Assembly (NCBI GenBank): GCA_951406725.2
Contig: OX597832.1
Coordinates: 9,362,001 to 9,426,000, forward strand
Direction: 5' to 3'
Length of the DNA stretch: 64,000 bases
Origin: Octopus vulgaris
Lineage: Eukaryota
Below are positions 1 through 59,837 of the stretch, piece after piece. Made by a program: the position numbers and the translations under genes. The notes below the pieces were generated by a model. That model saw nothing but the letters and a program-made list of their open reading frames with translations. It did not search any database and had not been told where the DNA came from. The first letter of the stretch is position 1; the number at the start of each line of letters is the position of its first letter.

Positions 1-87
1 AAAATGGTGCATTTGTAAACTACATTTTGAGCTAAACAGCAACCTACTAACGGACAATATGACTTTACTCTGCAATTGCAACCGGGA

Positions 88-97
88 GTATTACTGC

Positions 98-139
<42 letters not shown>

Positions 140-255
140 TACTGTTGCTGCTGCTGCTGCTACTACTACTACTGCTACTACTACTACTACTACTATCATT
201 ATTATAAACAATCTTATTATTACTACTACACTTATTATCAGCATTATTATTATTA
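88..255. repeat. Compound (TAT)n/(TGC)n/(TAC)n trinucleotide microsatellite
   Basis: Direct reading; explains the poly-Y/poly-I ORFs. Confidence 0.95.
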
Positions 256-1933
256 ATATTAGTACTAATTCCATCAATTATAGTATCACTTAAATTTATT
301 GCACTACCAACAGGTACTGTGTAAGTAATACCTTGCTTAGCATAAACATCAGTGTCACAATTTATGTTATGCATATTCGATTTATTAGATCTGTAGTTCT
401 GGATTCTTAGATATCCACTATTATTACCATCAATACAGGGGTTTAAATCATTATGAACAATATTAGGATAATTATTAATTCCTCGTGCTTTCGTGAGATT
501 CTGATCGTCGTACGGGAAAATATTATATTATACCAATGGGATGCTGGGAATCTTTTATCTGAAATTGCCATAAGTTTATTATGTATTTTGGTAGATATAG
601 CATAGTTAAAAGGAACATTATACCTGACTATATTACTCTTTCCAGACGTCTTATGTTTGCGAAGGTCAATTCTATCTACTCTTCTTTTGCGATGAACGAA
701 CGACTGTTCAATCATCGCATCCTGTATACATAAAAATGCACATACACACAGACGTATATATAGACACACACACACAAGCACATTTATATGTATATACATA
801 CACACACATATGTATATGTATATATGCATATATATACACACACACACATATATATATATATGCATGTGTATTTATATATGCACATACATATGGCGCAAAT
901 TGACCCAAAGATAGAAATTTGTTGTTATCCTAGTGATACTAAATTTGCATTGTAGTCAGTCAAGCAATATAAATATAAATGTTATGACTATAAACTATTT
1001 TGCCCAAAGCTATTTTGCACTTACGAGAATGAGAGATGACTCAGAATAAGGAAATATTAAATATTCATCAATGAGCACCTCAAGCATACATTACAGGCAT
1101 CAAATGCGTAACTGTTATCTGCATCGTTTTGACTCCTGAGCAGCATTATTCAATCTGCCATAGTCAGTAGCTTTAAAATTGTAAACGGCGCCTTGGAATC
1201 CATAGACAATCAGCAGGACCTAACCATTTCAAATATTGGCCCTTAAGACGAAACGTTATTAATATCAATAACAAAATCCCATATTAACAAAATAGTGTTA
1301 ACATATAAGTACAAAGATAGAGATGATAAGATAAGTCACTATTGCAAGTAGAAATTGTTTCCAAAACGGATATTCGTGACCCCAAATCCATAGTACGAAA
1401 TAGAACTAGCGAAATATACGTATTGAAGAAAAACTGCAGACGTTCTGGTACATTACATTATGTATACAAGAGATCTACAACATCAAACATGAAGATTAAC
1501 TAACGAACATAGATTAATTGATATGCTGTTTTTCCTTCTATAATATATTCCAACGTCACACCACATTAGAATGTAACCTATATATATATATATAAACTAT
1601 TTTCCACAAAAGATGTGCAACGGAAAAAAAACAAAACAAACATAGATCAATATCTATTAAATATGTCTAATTATAGAAAATAAATTAACCGAGTGAATTG
1701 CTCATCAAAAATAAAACTAAAATTTCGAAAATAATTATTAAATGTATAAAATATAACGTAATATAAAAACCAGTAAAAATGTTAAATTGCAACAAATTAA
1801 TACCATAAATAAAACGATCTAACTGCAAGCACACTGAATAACTTATCAAAGAAACGTCACCAAATGTCTACTATATGGGAAGACACATGCACGTATACAC
1901 ATTCACACACATATACAGACGGATATGCGTGTG

Positions 1934-6003: not shown

Positions 6004-7104
6004 TACGGTGAGAAAAAGGAAGCAACATTTTGGACCATGAAGAATTTGTACCTGATTGTTTCACAGTTTCGAGTTTTCAAAAATATTTTTAGCAATTGTC
6101 TGATAATACACTCATAGACTTGCCCAAATTTATCAATAATTTAACATTGATATTTTGTCCCCATTGTTACAATCCTGTGATATGGAACTGTGAAATCGCA
6201 ATATTCGAGCAATTTTGCAATTCAAGTACAAAACAGGACGTAAAGCAGCTGAAACTACTCACGAAATCAACGAATCGTTAGGTGAGGAAATGACAAGCCA
6301 AAATGCTCGAAAATGGTTTAAACGATTTTGCAGGTGAGTGGACGCCCATCTGTCATCGATGACAGTTAATTTAAGACCGTCATTTAAAAAATATCCCCGT
6401 AAAACCACTCAAGAACTGGCAAAAGAGCCTCAGGTTAGGTCGAAAATATTCTGTACAATAATATTCTGTACAGTAATAATAAATAAACATTCTTGCGAGT
6501 TTTTGGAGCAAAATGAGGGTCCGAAAACCTTCCTTAAACACAAGCTCTTCAAAAGAAGGTTATGGTGACTGTTTGGTGGTGTACTGCTTGACTCATCCAT
6601 TATAACTTCTTAAAATCCGGAAAAGAAAAGCCATTACTGCAGAAACGTATTACCATGAAATTGCCAAAATGACCGAAAAGATGCTAATCCTACGTCCCAG
6701 ACTGGCCAAAAGTAGAAGGTCAATCATTCTTCATGACCATTGTCGACCACACGTTTCACTAATGTCGCTTCAGAAGTTCAGGGACTTGACTACCAAGTTC
6801 TCCACCACACAACTTTTCACTCGACATTTCTCCTGCCGACTACCACTTTTCAAGCGTATTGATTGTTTCCTGCGAGAGAAAGAGTTCGAAGGCCAAATCG
6901 ATGCTGAAAGTGCGTTCAAAGAGTTCATCAACTCCAGAAAACCAGATTTTTATGCTACCGGAATAAAGATATTTGTATCTCGTTGGCAAAAATGTATTGG
7001 TTGTAATGGTATCTTCTTTCATGAATAAAATTCCCGCATTGTTGAAATATATTATGTTGAATTTCACGTTTCGAAACGTTGCATGCTTTTCACTCATTCT
7101 GATA
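6004..7104 (+). mobile_element. Degenerate, internally deleted mariner transposon (Hsmar1/cecropia-like)
   Basis: Peptides [70 protein letters not shown] match mariner DD34D transposases. Degenerate TIRs: 6004 tacggtgagaaaaaggaagcaac vs reverse complement of 7072-7101 cagaatgagtgaaaagcatgcaac. The region carrying the first catalytic Asp appears deleted near 6440-6480. Confidence 0.9.
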
Positions 7105-8368: not shown

Positions 8369-11300
8369 CGTGTAATGCATTGTCAACTTTCCTTCCTGTA
8401 CATACTTCAAACTTAGGCCTTTCAGTCATTCGATCTTTATGCCATTTGAAATTGAAATTGATATTCAGGATCCAGACGTTCGAGTTTCTTGTGTTTTGCA
8501 TTATTAATTAAACAAGACAACATATCTACACCCACATGTTCTCTCTCTCTCTCACACACACACACAGGCAATCTCACACAGAAGCGTCTTTACGCTTGTG
8601 CATTCGTTCAATTTACTAAATCGTTCCATTCAAACTTAGTGACCAAATACGTATGACTACTTAAATGCCATCCACTGTATATTACAATACAACATAGTTA
8701 AATTTGCATGCCCATATATGGGAAAGCAAAAACCGTCTCGATTGTGCAGTCAAGTAGCAATGTAAATTTTATTTTCCTATAGACAGCTTGCGAAATAACG
8801 AAATGAGCTACTTATCATATGCAACCACACGATTCTCCGAACATTTAAACGTTTGAGAAAGGAACAATGGATTTAGTATATTCTGAATCTATGAATCGGA
8901 TTAAACAAGAGCTACACAACAAACTATGGTGCCATTTATTTATTAAATTTCTCACTTCATGTACAATATAAGTATTGAACTTTCTCCATTTCGCTTTCAT
9001 CGCAGTTACACCAACGATTCAATTATCGGAGTTACCTTAATATTCTGGTGATATGATGAACTAGTTTTATTTTAGCTTCAGTAATTTGTAAATGACTCAG
9101 TGTACTGTATAATGCGATGCATGCATATTAATGGAAACAGGTAAACATAATTCATTCTATACTGAAATTATTAGTGTATGAATAAAGTTGCGAAGTGGTC
9201 GTAATCCTTACGAAGTCAAATGGTTAAATAAACATATTCATCTCTCATGCCTCCTATCTAGTATACACTTAGTTACCTACATACCTTCATACATACACAC
9301 ATACATACATACACAGTGACAGATACACACACACATACAGAGGCACACACACACGCACATTAATATATGTGAAATATGGAGAGAGAGAGAGAAAGAGAGG
9401 GAGAGAGAGAGAAAGAGAGGGAGAGAGAGAGAAAGAGAGGGAGAGAGAGAGAATCAAATATAGAGGGACAAAAACTCACTGAAATTCAACAGGTCATCTC
9501 CCTTTACTCAGACGTTCGTATCGAAGACTGCAACACATTGTCGAGTTTAAACTCTTATAGGTCTTATGCTGAAATATATAGAAATTTTTCATGTAATAAA
9601 TTGTTATTTATACAGTGTCCGTATATACTACATTAGGAAAAAGGAGATACGTGGGTAGATTGTGAATTTTTGTGTTAGAAAAATCTTGAGACACCTACTA
9701 TCGAATAAACAATGGTAATCAGCCCAATATGTGACAAATAAACGTATCATTCATGCGTATGTACAATTTGAGAGCAAGACAGTTTGAAAGATGTTTTATA
9801 CTGTAGCTAAACAAAATTGAAAATTCTTGGATGTTGAATTTGGCAATAGGTAGAGCGTGTGCTTATGTGCGTGCGTGTGTGTATGCGCGTGTGTGTGTGG
9901 GGGTCATGCGAAAGAATAGGGAAGAAAAAAAGAGTATTATCAATGAGAATATATAGGTAGTATGAGTGCATAATTTTGGGATGTAGCAGTGAATATGTGT
10001 ATGTGCGTGTGTGTGTATGTATGTTTATGTTTTGGATGAAGTAAAATATGTATACGTTCACAATATGACTAAACGTCTGATATGGATGCACTCATGAATG
10101 TCGACAAATATCAGAGTTGTATTGAATTTCAGGTTTGTATTGTATTTCGTATGTATTAGAAACACACAATGCATCTTTTACGAATGAGGTCCTCTAGGAA
10201 TTTGGAATTATATTCTAATTCATTATACAGCTTAATACTATTGATGCCCGTGTGTGCTGAGTAAATGCATTAAGAAATGGAACATTACTTATTATCCGAA
10301 TTCTCAAATGCATTAGCGCATTAATGTATAGTATATATACAGCATCTTAAAACTGCACAACAAACTTTGGGGGGTTTTATGTGCAAATACACATGGAATA
10401 AGAGATGGATTTTAGAAGGCAAAAAACTTAACCAAAGAAAAACAAGACAAAGCCGAGCAACACGTTTTCAATTATGAAAATAACCTTAAAGACGAACATT
10501 TAGGATATATGGATAAGGAAATTTTTTTTTTTAAAAAGCCACTCATGAAAAGACGAAGGAATGGAATATGGCGTATTTTGGGTACATTAAAAGGTCTTGG
10601 CATTTAAATAATTTACTACTCACTGCGATATCTGTTTGTACACGTTGTTAATTTAATATGAGAAAAATTGTCATCGCAAATCATTAATATTCCTATTGCG
10701 ATAATTTTCATTTCCGTAAAATATTGTACGTGAAGTTACGCAACGATATATACTCATTTATATATATATGTGTGTGTGTGTATATATATATATATTCACA
10801 CACGCTCACTCACTCGCTTACACACTAACACACGCATATGTATGAACATATAGATGTGTATACAGAAGGAGACTAAGTTGGTATGATTCAGGGAATGTGC
10901 AATATAATTTTACTTACTATAATAAAAATAAAATGCATCATTTACGCAAGGAATTCGTACAGATTAGCTTGCATCAATTTTAGATCCAACCTTATATGAC
11001 TTAGCATTTTATATTAAAGGTTGGAATAAAATAATTTACCTTCACCTACACTGAGCCATTCTATACGGGACTACATATTCTACAATGCCCTTTCAGAATT
11101 GTTTAAATTTCAGAGCTATCTAGCTCGTACCAGTGGTGAAATTAACAATTAGCCCTTCTGTTAATAGAAGATGATGAATAAATATGGCTGAGTAATAGAG
11201 AATTTTGTACAACCAGCCGGTTTGCGGAGTCGTTGATCTTCGTGTGGAGCCAAGAAAAATCATGCTTTTTCAAAGTTGTACGGTTATCAAATTCTTTATA

Positions 11301-11369
11301 TATGAATTTATTTCCTTTCGAGGCTAAAACAGCACCCATCATATTCTTGCTCTCTTTTAACCTTGTACA

Positions 11370-11513
11370 CGTTTCAGTCATTTAACTGTGGCCATCGACC
11401 CCAGGACTTATTCTTTGTAAGCCTAGTACTTATTCTATCGGTCTCTTTTGCCGAACCGCTAATGTAACGGGGAAATAAACACACAGGCATCTGTTGCCAA
11501 GCGGGGTTGGTGA

Positions 11514-11575
<62 letters not shown>

Positions 11576-12141
11576 GGAAAAAAGCAACAAGAATGGATTA
11601 AAATCTCGGTACGATCGTTTCGTACGAGGACATCTTTAATAAGCTACAAAAATGCAGTGAATACAGATGGCTCGTACTCGTCAGCCGAAAAAACATCAGA
11701 GAATTCCCAAACATCAAAAGGGGTAGATACAAAGGAGGTTGTAAGATTAGCTGCATTGAAGAAAGTTCGATTCATGGAGATCCGATGAAAGGATTTAAAC
11801 CTATAGAATTTATGCATGTCTACATATAGCTCATATTGAATATTTGATCAAGTTGTGTGAAGAAATTTTCGGATACAGTCATGCAAAATTTCTGAAAATC
11901 CGAGTAACAGGTAAAGTGACTGCCATATCATGTAGAGGAAAGTCTGAGTAAAAGCAAAGTGACTATATATATATACGACGGACTTCTTTCAGTTTCCGTC
12001 TACGATATCCACTCATAACTCTTTGGTGTGCCCGAAGCTATAGTAGAATACACTTGCCCAAGGTGCCACCTAGTGGGACCGAACTCGGGACCATTTGGTT
12101 GGTAAGCAAGCTACTTACCACACAGCCACTCCTGCGTCTAT
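11370..12141 (-). mobile_element. tRNA-derived SINE family 1 copy, split in its central microsatellite by an HHR-bearing insert
   Basis: 3' half (11370-11515) and 5' half (11965-12141) match the intact copy at 24522-24955 in reverse orientation. Confidence 0.85.
11604..11690 (-). ncRNA. Type I hammerhead ribozyme, canonical core, long stem II
   Basis: Minus strand: UUUCGG-CUGACGA-GUACGAG..CUCGUAC-GAAA-CGAUCG-UA-CCGAGA; 7-bp stem II base, palindromic stem III, GUA cleavage triplet. Confidence 0.85.
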
Positions 12142-12146
12142 AATAC

Positions 12147-13159: not shown

Positions 13160-13259
13160 NNNNNNNNNNNNNNNNNNNNNNNNNNNNNNNNNNNNNNNNN
13201 NNNNNNNNNNNNNNNNNNNNNNNNNNNNNNNNNNNNNNNNNNNNNNNNNNNNNNNNNNN
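13160..13259. other. Assembly gap (100 N)
   Basis: Run of n. Confidence 1.
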
Positions 13260-13630
13260 TATAGTATTTATATAATAATAGTTCAAGCCTACGCAGGGTA
13301 CAAGAGATAGAGAAAATAAAAGGGATATATGCATGATTTTCTCTGTATCTGCTGACCTGGATTCTCCTTATAGCCAGTCTTTACCCCCGTGGACTTGGTC
13401 CCTCGTAAGAACATAGGAGTCTAATTTCGAAACACCTGAGTGCCACTAACTATTTTCTATATCGAGAATCTCACACTCTCACTTTCTCCCTCTCTCCCTA
13501 TATATATCTGTGTGCGTATGTATGTGTGTGTGCATACATATGTCTATATATATATGCAAATATGTATAGATATGTGTATATATATATCTCCCTCTCTCTC
13601 TCTCTCCCTCTATATCTCTCTTTCTCTCCC

Positions 13631-27468: not shown

Positions 27469-27501
27469 TGATCAAAATAAAAACATGATGCCAATGATTC
27501 A

Positions 27502-27579
27502 GCGGTACATATGTTTCGGGCCTTTATTAGACAGATTTATAACAATGCATAATGTATGTCTGTGGCCTTCTTCAGCCGC
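27502..27579 (-). ncRNA. Type I hammerhead ribozyme, long stem II, A-C mismatch at the base of stem II
   Basis: Minus strand: GCGG-CUGAAGA-AGGCCACAGA..UCUGU..GGCCC-GAAA-CAUAUG-UA-CCGC; palindromic stem III. Confidence 0.75.
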
Positions 27580-28286
27580 GCACAACAGCTTCCACAAGGA
27601 CATGTGTTACATAAAAAATTCTTGGTTGGGGATGCAAATCTTCTCATTCGCGTACGACATAATGCGACAACAGCATAGAATTGAAGCGTCCATCTCTTTC
27701 TTCTCTCAATGTAGAATGAGGAAATTTGGATGTTGAAATAATGTAAATAAATAAATACATATATAGACGTGAAGATGGAGGGGCGAGAATTCAGGACGAG
27801 GGATAAAAAATGTATAAAAAGTGTAAGTATAGAAAAATATAAAAATGTAGAGTATAAAGATATAAAGGGATATAAGGAGATGTAAAGGGGATATAAAGAA
27901 TATAAAGAAATATAAAGAAACATAAATGAATGTAAAGGCATAAGGTTATAAAGTAAAAATAGAAATAGAAATAAAAGTAAAAAGTAAAAAAATAAAAATA
28001 GGAATAAACATGATAAAAATGTAAAAAAATATAAAGATAAGGGATGTATAGAGGTTACGGGCCAAACATGGTGGCCAGGAGATTGATAAAATTTAGTTGT
28101 AGAAGTTTTGGGTGTCAATAAATCAACAGGGTCGTCTGGGGACCTAGTGTGTTGTAAATCAGAGCTGTTGAGCGTCTAATCTAGTTCTTTGAATTAATTG
28201 GTCATCTTGTACATGCATACCATCATGGATACATACACCCATATATACGCGCACATATCCGCGCGCATATCAAGTACTCACCCCGA

Positions 28287-28353
<67 letters not shown>

Positions 28354-29477: not shown

Positions 29478-29686
29478 ACGGGAAGCTTTATGAAAATAGA
29501 CAAAAGACGAAGGCAGGTGGAATACAAACAAACAATTGTATTAGTATGGCGCTCAGGAATATAAATAAAACAAGTCTTTTACGTTTCGAGCCCACGCTCT
29601 TCAACAGAAAGATACACAGAAAAGAAACACGGAGAGAAACAAGGAGAGAAAAAAAATGCGTGCAGAAGCTAGCGAATCAACATGGC
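29478..29686 (-). mobile_element. ~210-bp HHR mini-element with 15-bp target-site duplication
   Basis: Flanked by gatataagtgtcata (29463-29477) and gatataagtgttata (29687-29701); homologous to 51035-51230 and 58053-58156. Confidence 0.8.
29575..29612 (-). ncRNA. Minimal type I hammerhead with A6U core variant
   Basis: UCUUU-CUGUUGA-A-GAGC-GUGG-GCUC-GAAA-CG-UA-AAAGA. Confidence 0.65.
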
Positions 29687-32308: not shown

Positions 32309-33189
32309 ACCCCCGTTCATATGCTACACTCAATTTGTCAACTTTTGCTTGTCGTTGTGTGCCACAAAAAATTATTTCTATCTATCACAAAAAAGGACGG
32401 TCTATTTGTTTGCGGTCAGCTGAATGCCAAGAAATCTAGTGAACCTTCTCGTCCAATCCATGTATGTGGCATCAACACTGAATGATAGGAATGTATATGT
32501 CTATGTGGTTAGTGTTCCATATTTCCTGTAATAAAACTGCACAACGCCAAACAACTCATGCACGTTTGGCAGATCGTTTCAGTAAAAGTGACAAGCCACA
32601 ACGCTACCCCACCTCACGAAAATAGCAAAAGTGTCAAATAAATTCTTTTGGGGAAAAGTTACATTATACTGTGCTTATGATAACGTATTATGATTTTCCT
32701 ACGTAATATGCAAAGTATTATGTCCTCGGTATATTCTAATACACCAGCAGTAAATTCAAATATTTAATCTAAATGTATCCTCAGCACCTCAAACAACCAT
32801 TTTGGAAAGTTTGCGCCTACTACACCTCTCGCCAAGCATCTCTTACTAAACTTCATTCTTCGCTCCGGATCATATTCAGTTAGAATACAAATAATTTTTG
32901 GAACGCAACTTTTCAAAAGACAGCGTTTCAAAATGCGACAAGAACCTGATTTTGAAATTCCTAACTGATATCTAGATTACCACATAAATTTTCTTGAACA
33001 CTTTCTTGCTTTGTGAGACTCGTGGGTGTCCGTACTGCCTCCCAACGTTCCTTTTCGACATTGTAAGCAGTTCCACCCACTTCAAAATTACCCCTGCATT
33101 TTTCTTTACACTTCAAATGCCTCTTCAATTGCTCGTAGCACTTGAGGACTCACATCCTTTGTTATGCATCTCGTTTTCATTAACATGGT

Positions 33190-33375
33190 GGCGCTGTGTC
33201 GACAATAGTCCACTTAACGCTGGGTATTTAATCTCGGAGATTATGGAGTCACCAGAGAAAACGAGACAAGGAAGTACAGTTCTCTCTGTCCCTCGATCTG
33301 AACGAATGCGTAAGCTGGGAGTATCTTCCCTTGAAGTCATTAGCTGATATACCCATATAGTGCCTAGTAATTGCA
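33190..33375 (-). mobile_element. PLE GIY-YIG endonuclease fragment (inverted relative to the adjacent RT)
   Basis: Minus frame: HYMGISANDFKGRYSQLTHSFRSRDRENCTSLSRFLW*L..SVKWTIVDTAPP matches the YIG..FKxRYxxHxxSF..TxLSxxxW..WxI pattern. Confidence 0.7.
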
Positions 33376-33433
33376 TATGATGGGTAAGGGTGGCTCTGAA
33401 TACTACGGTCCTTCCACTACATCTACGGATTAA

Positions 33434-34130
33434 TTCGGCTTCAAATCCCAAGTGTGCCCGCCACGTGTGAAAGAACTTGAGAAATTCGAGACTGATCTAT
33501 GGAACATTCTAAAGAAGGTAAGGTTTCAACATTATTTTAACCCCTTCCTTAAATCCCTACATGGCCATCTGACCAGCATTAAACAATTACTCAGCATACA
33601 CACCCTGTCAGGAAAAACAAAAAGCATTTGCAAAATGAACACTTCCACACACTCAAGTCTTCTTACGTGTGTCATCACCAAAACATAAACAAAACCAGTA
33701 ATCCCATATACAATAATATGAACGCAGGAGCAAAGGAGTTTGCCATCCGCCTTAATATAGAGGAACATATGAATTGCTTCACCACGTGACACCCCTTCAA
33801 TTTTACACTTAAGGACCTCACTTCCACTCCAATCTCAAATGCAGGATGATCAACCTCTCTAAAAGTGAGACAGGTAGTATTAGTAAAAATATTCTCGGTA
33901 TCACCAACTCGATTTCAGAATAGCTACAGGGACTTCAGCGCAAACGTGGTCGACTGGTTCCGCGGTGTGGAGAATAAATCAGCCTGTTGTTTCACCCTGT
34001 CTGACATTGTTAATTTTTCCTTTCCATATCTAAGCCCCTCGTCCTGAATGCTCTAACTGCTGTTGAGCAATGCACCAGCATTAGTCATCTTGACATCACA
34101 TCAGAATGATCATGAATGCCAGAAAGTCAA
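33434..34130 (+). mobile_element. PLE RT N-terminal remnant
   Basis: FGFKSQVCPPRVKELEKFETDLWNILKKVRF..SGKTKSICKM..CRMINLSKSE..WFRGVENKSACCFTLSDIVNF, typical of the N-terminus to motif A of metazoan C-terminal-EN PLEs; many stops. Confidence 0.75.
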
Positions 34131-34369
34131 TTCTGGGTCACGATGATTCCAGATATTGATATTGTTATTGTTATTGATATTGTTATTGTTATTGATATTG
34201 TAAATTATTGATAAACTTTTGGATAATTTTGAAATGAAATAGCCGGCATATTTATTTACTGCCGACAGGGATCTGAGCTTGCGCGGTAGATTTGAAAAAT
34301 TAGAATGAATAAGCACGGGGCATATACTGAATTGCCTCGTGTTTATATATATGTTTAATCTATGGTGTA

Positions 34370-34439
34370 CCTGCTGAAGAACGCTTCGCCTAGCAAATTA
34401 TTTTATTTGCTAAAAAAAGACTTAAACGTTTGGTCCAGG
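34370..34439 (+). ncRNA. Degenerate hammerhead-like fold downstream of the PLE remnant
   Basis: CCUG-CUGAAGA..UAGCAAAU/AUUUGCUA hairpin..UAAA (G12 lost)-CGUUUGG-UC-CAGG. Confidence 0.35.
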
Positions 34440-34826
34440 AGTTAGATGGTAAATGTTTTTATTTTTCATTCCCTTCGATATTTTATATCTAACAGTAGTT
34501 CGGAATTTCGAGTCCAATTTTAATCAGAAACTCATTGTTGGATATCAGGCTTTACTTACAGTCCGAATCATATATATATATCACATTCCATATTTTACCG
34601 TAGTTTATATCACATATCATACTACGTCGTAGTTTATTTATTTTAGGTAACTTTAATTGACTCTGGCCTTTATCGTGTAACTTCAAATGAATAGGCACAA
34701 ATACATAAGTTTACATACATAAATACATACATACATATATGCATATATATGCATACACATATGTATGTATCTTCTCCCTCTCGATATATCATGTGTTTGT
34801 ACATATTCACATACATATATACATAG

Positions 34827-36609: not shown

Positions 36610-36670
<61 letters not shown>

Positions 36671-36856
36671 TAAGCAATTAAGGGTTTAGCAACGAATTGC
36701 CTCGCCACACACCGAATTTAGAAATAGCAGTCAAAGAGTTATAGCTATTCTTTCTACTAAAAGGGAGATCTCAGTAAAAACACAGCACTTGAAAGGCAAA
36801 CACAGACAGGTAAGAGAGAATGAAATGACGGCAATGCATCATACAATTTTAAGTCA

Positions 36857-36948
36857 CCTACGGACGTACGTTTCGAAATCAAGTTTTAGGAAAGCATAAG
36901 AATTAGAAAATTCTACCTTACCCAAACTTCTTTTCTCATCAGCGTAGG
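36857..36948 (-). ncRNA. Type I hammerhead ribozyme, canonical core with GUC site, long stem II
   Basis: Minus strand: CCUACG-CUGAUGA-GAAA..UUUC-GAAA-CGUACG-UC-CGUAGG; 6-bp stem I, palindromic stem III; cleavage between 36863 and 36862. Confidence 0.88.
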
Positions 36949-37034
36949 ATACTACAATTATGAATAATTGTATATTAAATTTTGAGATACTAGAAGGCAA
37001 AATCTCAACTCAGTGTGATTTTAATGATTCCGAA

Positions 37035-37325
37035 AGGGGGCAATTACCTGGGACTACCGAGCAGATGTCGCTATAATTGCAACGATCTATGCTTTGAAAA
37101 CGGGACCGAAACCAGCCGCTTTCAGGACAGCTATCAAGTACTAATGCTCGACTCTATCAAAAGCTTTTGCTTGATCAAAATTGATCAACGCCCCACCAAT
37201 ACCAGATTCCTTACCTACACTGTCTATGATATATCGCGTGAGGTGGAGTTTGTCGTGGATAGATCTGTTCGAGGGCATGTTTGCACCTCACTGACTAATC
37301 TAGCAACGACAAGCGCCAACAGGAG
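37035..37325 (-). mobile_element. Tx1/L1-clade LINE RT fragment
   Basis: Minus strand: LVSEVQTC..SIHDKLHLTRYII..GALINFDQAKAFDRVEH*YLIAVLKAAGFGPVF. Confidence 0.8.
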
Positions 37326-56818: not shown

Positions 56819-56963
<145 letters not shown>

Positions 56964-57260
56964 GATAAGAGTAAATAATTTCTATAAAGGCTTTTAAAAA
57001 AAAAACAATTATTTACTGGTAGAATTCGGTATGTAAATATAGCCGATTACCGGCAGGAACTTCTGTGAAGTTCAGTATATATATTGTATATAAGAAAAAG
57101 GGACAGGCAAAACAGGTTGCTTGACCGCATACCGAAAAAATAGAAATAGCAGTCAAGAATGCTTATTTCTATCAAAGTTGGACTCCGGGCATGACAGACC
57201 CTGTAATTCACATATGCAAAACAGAAGGAATAGATAACGAATACGAAGTCTGGCGGTTAT

Positions 57261-57371
57261 CTGTGAACATCATGTTTCTGGATTATAAACATATTGAATA
57301 TATATTCCATATATTTTTGATATATATTTCATATATATTGCAAATATATTTCACATCCTTCTTCAGCACAG
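57261..57371 (-). ncRNA. Type I hammerhead, long stem II (inverted copy)
   Basis: Reverse complement of 57874-57984. Confidence 0.7.
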
Positions 57372-57873
57372 CTTTCCATTGAAAAAGATTTATCATAGAT
57401 TTATCAAATGCTACGTACCTCAAACCTTCTGACCATGCGACATCAAAATATTTGAAGAAAGTGAGCAAAGGCTAAATCTACATAGACGTTTGAATTCATA
57501 AATCTTCCCTCCGCGGTCAAGCAACCTGTTTTGCCTGTCCCTTTTTCTTATATACAATATACAGAAGTTCCTGCCGGTAATCGGCTATATTTACATACCG
57601 AATTCTACCAGTAAATAATTGGGGTTTTTTTAAAAGCCTTTATAGAAATTATTTACTCTTATCATTATATTACTATTTGGATTTTTCACTCCCTTTGACA
57701 GCCTATTTTTGTAATGCGCATGGCAGAATTTTGGAGGGAAGATTTATGAATTCAAACGTCTATGTAGATTTAGCCTTTGCTCACTTTCTTCAAATATTTT
57801 GATGTCGCATGGTCAGAAGGTTTGAGGTACGTAGCATTTGATAAATCTATGATAAATCTTTTTCAATGGAAAG

Positions 57874-57984
57874 CTGTGCTGAAGAAGGATGTGAAATATA
57901 TTTGCAATATATATGAAATATATATCAAAAATATATGGAATATATATTCAATATGTTTATAATCCAGAAACATGATGTTCACAG
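57874..57984 (+). ncRNA. Type I hammerhead, long AU-rich stem II
   Basis: CUGUG-CUGAAGA-A-GGAU..AUCC-A-GAAA-CAUGAUG-UU-CACAG. Confidence 0.7.
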
Positions 57985-58062
57985 ATAACCGCCAGACTTC
58001 GTATTCGTTATCTATTCCTTCTGTTTTGCATATATGAATTACAGGGTCTGTCGTTTGTTTTC

Positions 58063-58140
58063 CACCTGCCTTCGTCTTTTCACCTGCCTTCGTCTATTTT
58101 CACCTGCCTTCGTCTATTTTCACCTGCCTTCGTCTATTTT
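58063..58140 (+). repeat. Four tandem ~20-bp units CACCTGCCTTCGTCTATTTT within the 3' end of the HHR mini-element family
   Basis: Direct reading; a single unit occurs in the 29478-29686 element. Confidence 0.9.
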
Positions 58141-58154
58141 CATAAAGCTCCCCG

Positions 58155-58196
<42 letters not shown>

Positions 58197-58198
<2 letters not shown>

Positions 58199-58945
58199 CG
58201 AATTCATCAAAGGAGTATTCAAAACAAGAAAACCACCCCCAACAAATAGACACGTAGATGCCTTTGAAAATGAATTCTAGGATACAATAACGAGGCTAAA
58301 TTTTAAGCGACACCCACAAAGGGATCACAGCTACCAGAGGAACCTAGAAGACCTGATATATGCCACAAATCACACACAATTGAACATGAAGGAAATAAAT
58401 GTAAAATTAGAAGGGAGGATATCACTTATTAGCTTTGATAATAAACTCTGGGTACGTAAAGGAACCCCTTTTGATATCCCCATGGGAGCCCCATATTCAG
58501 CACAGATAACTGATCTGGTAGACATCTATTTGCTATCACGCATACAGGACGAATTCCCGGAACTCAAACGTGGACCCTACAGGGACGACGCTCTCTTCAT
58601 AATTAATTCACACTCAAATAGGAAACTAGAGCTTATCAATAAAAGCTACATAAATTCTTCAAATGTTTTGGACAATCTATCTCTATTGAAAAGGAACAGA
58701 CACAGCCTGCCATCTAACCACAGGACTCTATGAACCATACATGAAACCCAACACGAACCTCATATACATAATCACTGCAAGTAAACACCCACAATTTATG
58801 AAGAGTAGCCTAGTACATAGCACTAGTAATAGAATTTCACGCCTCTCTTCTAACGGAGACATCTTTAACAGACATAAAGAAACCTATAACTCCACACTAC
58901 GGAAAGCAGTATTTAAACAAAGAATCAAATACCTAAACCTTAATC
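58197..58945 (+). mobile_element. PLE RT remnant (YRDD type), internally deleted
   Basis: FKTRKPPP..FENEF; FDIPMGAPYSAQITDLVDIYLL; GPYRDDAL; YEPYMKPNTNLIYIITASKHPQ..RISRLSSNGDIF (thumb); starts after (TA)n. Confidence 0.85.
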
Positions 58946-59837
58946 ACCCTATAAGCAGCCCAAATAACAGGAAACCACTCACTAGTACAACTAACCCCAA
59001 CCACACACCATGCTCAATCGCAAACAAATTACGGGTAGCCCACATGAACCCAACGAATAAGAAGGCGAGATTCAAGATGATACAGCTCTGATTTTATGCC
59101 TATCTACATTATAAAACACACACACATACACACACACACACACACACATACACATACATACGGTGCCGATGCTGGGGTTACGTTGCACTTGTAATTTTGT
59201 GTACATATATGTCTCTATCTATATCTATATCTACCTAACTATCTATCTATCTATCTATCTATATATATATATATGTATATATGTATAGCTATATCCAGCT
59301 ATCTAGCTATCGTTCGTTTGATCAATATAATTTGCAATTTTTCTCCTCTCTCTCTCTCGCTCTCTATGTATATGTGTGTATTTGTGTGTGTGTGTGTGTG
59401 AATGTATTTTTATGTATGAATATGTCCTTCATATATGTAGATAAAAACATAATATTTTTTGATGCAAGGAGGAAAATAATAGAAAATTACAACCTGAAAT
59501 ATGATTTGTAACGTACCTGTTGGTAGGACAGTGAGATTATAAAGAGAAACAACTTCAATGTTTAATACATAGAATTGACATTTTAACGCTGAGTACAAAA
59601 CCTGTAGTAAATCTACGGTTATACACATTTAATGCAAGAAAATGACAAAAAAAATATTTGCAATAGAAACACATATAGAAACAATACCGAATTTAGGACG
59701 TCGGTTGGCATTGCACGCTCAGAGTATGTATGCATGTAGAAAGACGCAAGACATTCTGTTAGAAACGCTTGTATAGGTGATGTGCTGTAGTACAGATGAT
59801 AAAGAGATATTAATATATCTGATAGTGTTAAGGTGTC

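Follow-up and report, generated by a model that had tools for sequence, protein, structure and literature searches.

In a 64,000-nt stretch of Octopus vulgaris DNA (the window, analysed at its full length), a SINE copy is split in its central microsatellite by a 388-nt insert carrying a type I hammerhead ribozyme motif with an extended, structured helix II. The insert is probably the 5′-truncated 3′ end (3′ UTR or pseudo-LTR) of a Penelope-like element that targets (TA)n, a parentage that we infer. The insertion event is ordinary: targeting of (TA)n by Penelope-like elements is known, and so are the solo 3′ ends with hammerheads that they leave behind. The novelty lies in the form and density of the ribozyme, with four unrelated families in 64 kb, each having a structured helix II of 51-81 nt, a perfect core and a self-complementary stem III. 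The focal insert represents one of these four intact long-helix-II families; an earlier note on this DNA had described it and missed the other three.

The split SINE and its insert

The window is animal-type DNA, AT-rich and dense in microsatellites, with a run of 100 N (about 13160-13260) that is an assembly gap. A stop-free stretch on the plus strand (6606-7028), which by eye we take to resemble a mariner transposase C-terminus, had no Pfam match. The features of the focal locus are the following.

11350-11502, minus strand: tail half of the SINE, found by BLAST to other copies; 143 of 162 columns agree with the majority of the other copies
11515-11575, no strand: core microsatellite of the SINE, (CA)22 then (TA)8, abutting the 3′ end of the insert
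11576-11963, minus strand: non-coding insert of 388 nt, single copy within the window
11894-11920 and 11938-11963, no strand: degenerate direct repeat, 22 of 27 positions identical
11964-11975, no strand: (TA)6 at the 5′ junction of the insert, which would hide any target duplication
11976-12142, minus strand: head half of the SINE; 150 of 167 columns agree with the majority of the other copies

The SINE lies on the minus strand and its core has the order (CA)22-(TA)8-insert-(TA)6. BLAST within the window matched six other tail halves and six other head halves, and among the seven tail halves the alignment showed an uninterrupted CA/TA core in four. The two focal halves are collinear, on the same strand and equally diverged from the other copies (88.3% identity for the tail, 89.8% for the head), therefore they derive from one SINE insertion that was split. 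The earlier note had placed the split at the (CA)n(TA)n core, where both junctions exactly fall, and had named an origin of the halves from different insertions as the case that would speak against it; their collinearity and similar identities do not agree with such an origin. As both junctions consist of TA repeat, a target duplication of the insert is unreadable, and around the SINE itself nothing beyond a 6-mer was found in the window sequence. We liken the SINE to an Octopus tRNA-derived SINE, and its head half holds what we take, by eye, to be tRNA-like A- and B-box-like motifs; a search for tRNA genes found none.

The insert has a GC content of 36.6%. The earlier note had given it about 390 nt with its end at 11964, a position that already belongs to the TA repeat, and the description as non-coding agrees with our searches: Pfam returned no family for six of the seven stop-free pieces and one chance match (E = 0.15) for the other, and two translated pieces had no relatives in protein collections, which is weak evidence. 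No second copy was found within the window and no tandem unit at the locus, where the insert is a single unit, and its self-pairing is not high (z −0.72 as a linear and −0.76 as a circular molecule). A bacterial, archaeal, phage or plasmid origin was rejected with 0 matches, and a sigma-70 promoter scan, not relevant here, stayed at chance level. A motif search for the insert and the SINE in the consulted parts of papers and two supplements gave no match.

The direct repeat of about 27 bp is present as noted earlier, and it is weakly above chance, its 22/27 identity being equalled in 6 of 300 shuffles; if the insert is young, the repeat predates the insertion. The two ends of the insert have an 8-mer in common, a borderline and post hoc result (equalled in 23 of 2000 shuffles, and in 67 of 2000 that preserved the local composition). 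The tail at 11576-11592, read on the minus strand as GTTG, a T run, a C and then the TA repeat, is a motif that occurs twice in the window and, by eye and post hoc, resembles several Hydra magnipapillata element tails in the consulted part of PMC8557442.

Being nested in the SINE, the insert is younger than it. In a neutral simulation, the motif stayed intact with P of 0.022 at 10% divergence, 0.010 at 12% and 0.33 at 3%, values subject to ascertainment bias because the motif was seen for being intact. Given these low survival odds at the 10-12% divergence of the SINE, the insert is probably much younger than the SINE, or the motif is under selection. The earlier proposal of a younger element that targeted the TA tract thus agrees both with the collinear, equally diverged halves and with a survival probability of only 0.01-0.02.

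The hammerhead motif and its predicted folding

The motif lies near the 3′ end of the insert and comprises the following parts.

11604-11690, minus strand: type I hammerhead motif (stem I, CUGACGA, helix II, GAAA, stem III, GUA site)
11690-11685 and 11609-11604, minus strand: stem I, 6 bp with one G-U
11684-11678, minus strand: CUGACGA
11622-11677, minus strand: extended helix II, 56 nt (7 bp, 5 bp and a 5-bp hairpin)
11677-11671 and 11628-11622, minus strand: base of helix II, 7 bp, G10.1-C11.1
11621-11619, minus strand: GAA
11618-11611, minus strand: palindromic stem III, ACGAUCGU, the predicted dimerisation helix
11610, minus strand: A17 (GUA site)
11576-11609, minus strand: segment of 34 nt 3′ of the predicted cleavage site (stem I 3′ strand and T-rich tail)

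The core positions C3-A9 (CUGANGA), G12-A14, A15.1-U16.1 and H17 are all present, and the three helices, with stem I as the open end, define type I. The perfect minus-strand core with a GUA site reported in the earlier note is therefore borne out, every conserved nucleotide being in place and none of 150 shuffles reaching its level. Its account of stem II was right for the 7-bp base with G10.1-C11.1 and for the CUGCA/UGUAG hairpin, and needs correction for the extension between them, which has 5 bp (CAUCU/AGAUG) rather than four. The end that it put about 33 nt after the cleavage site lies 34 nt from it, at (TA)n. What the note did not contain is that stem III is a perfect palindrome, without closure as a monomer hairpin.

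A descriptor scan allowing a helix II of up to 130 nt found five sites in the window versus 0.03 per shuffled window at its loosest level, and sites of the strong level occurred in 0 of 150 block-shuffled windows. A second scoring, with one core change allowed, gave five sites at a score of at least 14 versus none in 30 shuffles. The focal helix II folds at −18.1 kcal/mol (z −4.75), better than 500 of 500 shuffles. Rfam returned no matches at the gathering threshold for the whole window; around the locus, with E up to 5, it missed the focal hammerhead and gave three microsatellite-driven chance matches.

The folding predictions differ between one and two copies. Stem III is predicted to form a self-duplex of −10.0 kcal/mol and no monomer hairpin, with 2 bp in the monomer and 8 bp in the dimer, and the predicted pairing probability of A15.1-U16.1 is 0.001 in the monomer versus 0.865 between two copies. 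The unconstrained two-strand minimum free energy structure is a double hammerhead (−60.6 versus 2 × −27.3, core 96% unpaired). In the predicted fold of a single copy, the core's own ACGA pairs with stem III, and when the whole insert is folded stem I barely forms (probability 0.01) and helix II pairs at 0.94-0.98. The single-copy hammerhead is thus predicted to be misfolded and inactive, and cleavage to be dimer-only. As stem III is predicted only between two copies, cleavage would take place in tandem or multimeric parent transcripts. Penelope hammerheads have been described as having a palindromic stem III and requiring dimers (PMC4209133, consulted in part), and the predicted focal fold matches that dimer model.

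Sister hammerheads and Penelope remnants in the window

Three further intact families and a set of coding remnants lie in the window.

27469-28291, minus strand: sister insert of 823 nt flanked by (TA)n tracts, in a different, older copy of the focal SINE family
27579-27502, minus strand: 27.5-kb hammerhead, 51-nt helix II, site 37 nt from (TA)12
36670-36990, minus strand: sister element adjoining the core (TA)n of a third SINE copy that lacks its head half; far boundary approximate
36948-36857, minus strand: 37-kb hammerhead, 61-nt helix II, 193 nt to (TA)n
56962-58155, no strand: inverted pair with arms of 320 nt (99.7%), between (TA)70 and (TA)21
57366 (minus strand) and 57879 (plus strand): cores of the 57-kb hammerheads, one per arm, 81-nt helix II of 11-nt repeats
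36722-36737 and 57141-57156 (approximate): 16-mer shared by otherwise unrelated elements
3-661, minus strand: Hydra-type remnant, by profile
8676-8867, plus strand: Hydra-type remnant, by profile
33177-34053: Hydra-type remnant, by profile, with its RT part at 33416-34053
34370-34439, plus strand: decayed long-helix-II hammerhead candidate with G12 lost, sense to and downstream of the RT remnant 33416-34053
58215-58965, plus strand: Hydra-type remnant, by profile, internally deleted and starting right after (TA)21

In the sister families the 3′ side faces (TA)n, at distances of 37, 193 and 176/304 nt, and random positions fall within 34-37 nt of such a tract in 4.2-4.5% of cases. Stem III varies among the four families and stays self-complementary: ACGAUCGU, ACAUAUGU, ACGUACGU and ACAUGAUGU. 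Helix II was matched by 4 of 500 shuffles for the 37-kb and 2 of 500 for the 57-kb hammerhead, and by 44 of 500, which is not significant, for the 27.5-kb one; the 57-kb stem III is predicted to close partially as a monomer (0.66). Because of these 27.5-kb and 57-kb exceptions, neither a stable helix II nor a dimer-only stem III is common to all four. Kinship of the insert with other elements of the window was rejected, as no sequence similarity was found and the closest value was reached in 15 of 200 shuffles. The exact 16-mer that the 37-kb and 57-kb elements share 3′ of the site occurred in 0 of 200 shuffles; it is possibly a protein-binding or priming signal.

Of the four intact families, three have their ends in focal-SINE cores, all of them sense to the SINE. 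With SINE cores making up 6-7 of 36-53 TA clusters, the post hoc enrichment has P of 0.006-0.010, or 0.013-0.024 when the decayed motif is counted. A sequence-only model built from five motifs recovered four of the five training families, the exception being the 37-kb one, and yielded no weighty new site.

Individual loci showed further traits. The 27469-28291 insert has AT-rich tandem repeats inside. An L1-like RT fragment (about 36990-37290; E 0.18, weak) lies directly 5′ of the 37-kb element on the same strand. The 57-kb pair is a young inverted duplication that adjoins the head of a second SINE family and precedes a Hydra-type RT remnant. The 3′ end of its plus-strand arm (58053-58155) matches 29478-29529 on the opposite strand. 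The two arms differ in the place of a 167-nt segment, which precedes the motif in one and follows it in the other, and the arrangement suggests a unit of about 600 nt, either repeated or circular.

The coding profiles were built from the ORF fragment at 58281-58730, through one relative and the best 150 of its 12,291 matches, and they are all Hydra-type. Among the 33 longest relatives within those best 150 of 12,291, DKT/DKS was present in 29, RW[KR] in 17 and DKG in none, and DKT/DKS with RW[KR] and without DKG is the signature of the Hydra clade in the consulted part of PMC8557442. The 33177-34581 copy is rearranged: an inverted endonuclease piece is followed by a sense RT N-terminal piece, 18-nt repeats, the decayed long-helix-II hammerhead and (TA)6. 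In this decayed motif CUGAAGA is followed by 42 nt and then by an altered GAAA, and stem I has 4 bp; its descriptor was tuned after sighting and matches 4 of 300 shuffled windows, and the relaxed hammerhead scan of the window did not pick it up. It is the sole link between these hammerheads and an ORF.

In the insert itself, no remnant of an ORF with RT and C-terminal GIY-YIG (RWK, DKT, CxxC/CxH) was found. A frameshift-aware Hydra endonuclease profile scored 11.9 on the 274 nt upstream of the focal motif versus a shuffle mean of 12.0, with positive controls at 27.5 and 54.3, and was likewise negative for the 27.5-kb element (tested in two parts) and the 37-kb element. A decayed Hydra endonuclease C-terminus, proposed by eye from a CRH motif, was rejected with a score at shuffle level. 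The attachment to a PLE ORF that the earlier note had in mind was thus not found in the insert with the Hydra-type profiles. A short-motif search against the consulted consensus sequences of PMC8557442 also showed no similarity.

Origin of the insert and its place among known elements

Among published systems, here compared through the consulted portions of the cited sources, the Hydra clade of Penelope-like elements (e.g., Hydra-1_Obim, PMC8557442) is one of the closest. Its families have a (TA)n target in 26 of 27 rows and sense hammerheads near the 3′ end, with a 3-4-bp stem III and a 30-40-bp tail, and Hydra-1_Obim ends, by eye, about 31-36 nt after its site (PMC8557442). The insert shares the (TA)n target, with TA on both sides, the sense type I hammerhead near the 3′ end (34 nt), the 3-4-bp stem III with a tiny or absent loop, the T-rich tail and the end tens of nucleotides after the site. 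On the other hand, loops II have 3-10 nt in all 26 Hydra rows of the hammerhead table (PMC8557442), whereas the insert has a 56-nt structured helix II and lacks an ORF remnant. Since no Hydra coding remnant is present, we do not file the insert as a Hydra member, only as working alike. Hydra is the likeliest candidate for the parent clade, and Naiad the next. O. vulgaris is reported to have 190 Penelope-like families that make up 6.83% of the genome (PMC13282606).

Cephalopod Naiads share the (TA)n target, and Naiads have an N-terminal GIY-YIG, a CxC and a C-terminal RT, long 3′ UTRs with internal repeats and, in eight families, half cores 35-50 nt apart (PMC8557442). They differ in being described without canonical hammerheads, and the cephalopod 3′ ends that were inspected are by eye unlike the insert (PMC8557442). 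In the supplement of that paper, near parts 13-16, several Naiad 3′ ends by eye have CUGANGA and GAAAC connected by a helix II of 5-6 bp, inside which lie about 35-45 nt. In the ends near parts 14 and 16 these internal nucleotides seem to include the pairing partners of stems I and III, an arrangement that by eye resembles the non-circular CSG permutation (PMC10085705). Naiads may therefore not lack hammerheads, to go by this inspection of the sequences. Again by eye, a consensus near part 51 of the same supplement has a type I motif whose helix II spans about 100 nt.

Metazoan Penelope hammerheads of the minimal and palindromic-stem-III kinds (PMC4209133; review PMC6765202) resemble the focal one in type I, G10.1-C11.1, a 7-bp helix II base, a palindromic stem III, dimer dependence (predicted here) and an occurrence mostly as solo truncated copies. 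They differ from the insert in lacking the two further helix II stems and the 6-bp stem I, and the focal copy, unlike them, has no extra base between 9 and 10.1.

We consider that the history of the insert would be as follows. Going by known Penelope biology, the parent's GIY-YIG endonuclease would have nicked the TA tract, and the RT would have begun copying the element RNA at a point about 34 nt downstream of the ribozyme site and left off 388 nt later, short of recognisable coding sequence. Repair would then have left TA repeat at both sides. Ribozyme activity would be confined to tandem or multimeric transcripts of the parent, with little or no cleavage in the solo copy. The focal copy was most likely dead on arrival. 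Most such insertions are reported as 5′-truncated with one terminal repeat (bioRxiv 2026.07.22.740005), internal initiation of reverse transcription creates the tail (PMC11167929), and for an anole element, whose ribozyme required protein, insertion in vitro did not depend on the ribozyme (PMC11167929), in the parts of these sources used here.

The earlier note had left the choice between a retrozyme-sized monomer and a solo pseudo-LTR. The pseudo-LTR appears to fit best, and the monomer, a non-LTR retrozyme unit of about 390 nt cut from arrays elsewhere, circularised and reinserted by Penelope proteins in trans, is in our judgement possible and rather unlikely. The 388 nt and 36.6% GC agree with the 150-450 bp and below 50% GC of these elements, whose mussel units have 350-390 bp (PMC7229834), and the insert is, like them, non-coding, without ORF remnant and equipped with a type I hammerhead (PMC7229834; bioRxiv 2026.07.22.740005). 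Retrozyme monomers are common and dispersed, a Penelope origin has been proposed for retrozymes (PMC7229834; bioRxiv 2026.07.22.740005), the displaced 57-kb segment is what a repeated unit would give, and the 8-mer common to both insert ends also speaks in this direction. However, retrozymes have at least two hammerhead units in tandem and high self-pairing, and the insert has neither at this locus, whether folded as linear or circular; it lies within (TA)n and its 3′ end is Penelope-like. In two unrelated inserts the distance from site to end is 34 and 37 nt, as in Penelope-like elements, whereas a circle could open anywhere, and the neighbouring inserts differ in length (388 and 823 nt).

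Much less probable is a composite of SINE and ribozyme in which the SINE core would be a favoured partner and no chance target, the ribozyme pieces being joined to it as RNA, through template switching at the TA run, or homing to it. The product would resemble Schistosoma Sm-alpha, whose type I hammerhead follows a polymerase III-type head on the same strand (review PMC6765202, consulted in part). The post hoc enrichment in SINE cores agrees with such a composite, as do the sense orientation of all three cases (1 in 8 by chance) and the 37-kb case, which has no SINE head and runs into the L1-like RT fragment on the same strand. Against it, the numbers are small, and the ribozyme here, unlike that of Sm-alpha, arrived later, in an insert specific to this copy. 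Five T runs (4-6 T each) that separate its core from the SINE head would stop polymerase III. Three of the seven SINE copies carry three unrelated inserts, therefore no composite was amplified as one unit, and the two cases that keep both SINE halves would need two switches. An artefact, with halves of separate insertions joined by rearrangement or a motif that matches by chance, is very improbable: the missing target duplication around the SINE would suit it, but the collinear halves, the junctions exactly in the core and the 0/150 shuffles speak against it. We retain the truncated 3′ end of a Penelope-like element as the likeliest origin.

In the literature as far as consulted, type I Penelope hammerheads whose helix II has 50-80 nt were not described, and the O. 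vulgaris repeat library may already hold the focal family without its ribozyme being noted. The nearest in print are two plant Penelope rows flagged as deviant, whose loops have 29-35 nt, and the eight Naiad families with distant half cores (PMC8557442), and the "long helix II" of viral hammerheads has 6-8 bp in the sources consulted. The core search of PMC8557442 allowed only 7-17 nt between half cores. Together with the failure of Rfam to detect any of the four families, this means that ribozyme censuses in such genomes may be large undercounts and that elements described as lacking ribozymes may have them, and it suggests that the long-helix-II motif is a common variant missed by the standard RNA family library. 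A bolder picture, which we hold to be unlikely, is that long-helix-II, dimer-only hammerheads are very abundant and unannotated at Penelope 3′ ends in this genome, are directed in sense to one SINE family's core and, by pairing of transcripts from dispersed solo copies, cleave in trans.

On that picture, and if the window is typical, its four intact loci in 64 kb would scale to a number of the order of 100,000 in the genome. The four families offer a test set for what Penelope hammerheads do, and for whether the long helix II has stem I as its docking partner or is bound by the protein of the element.
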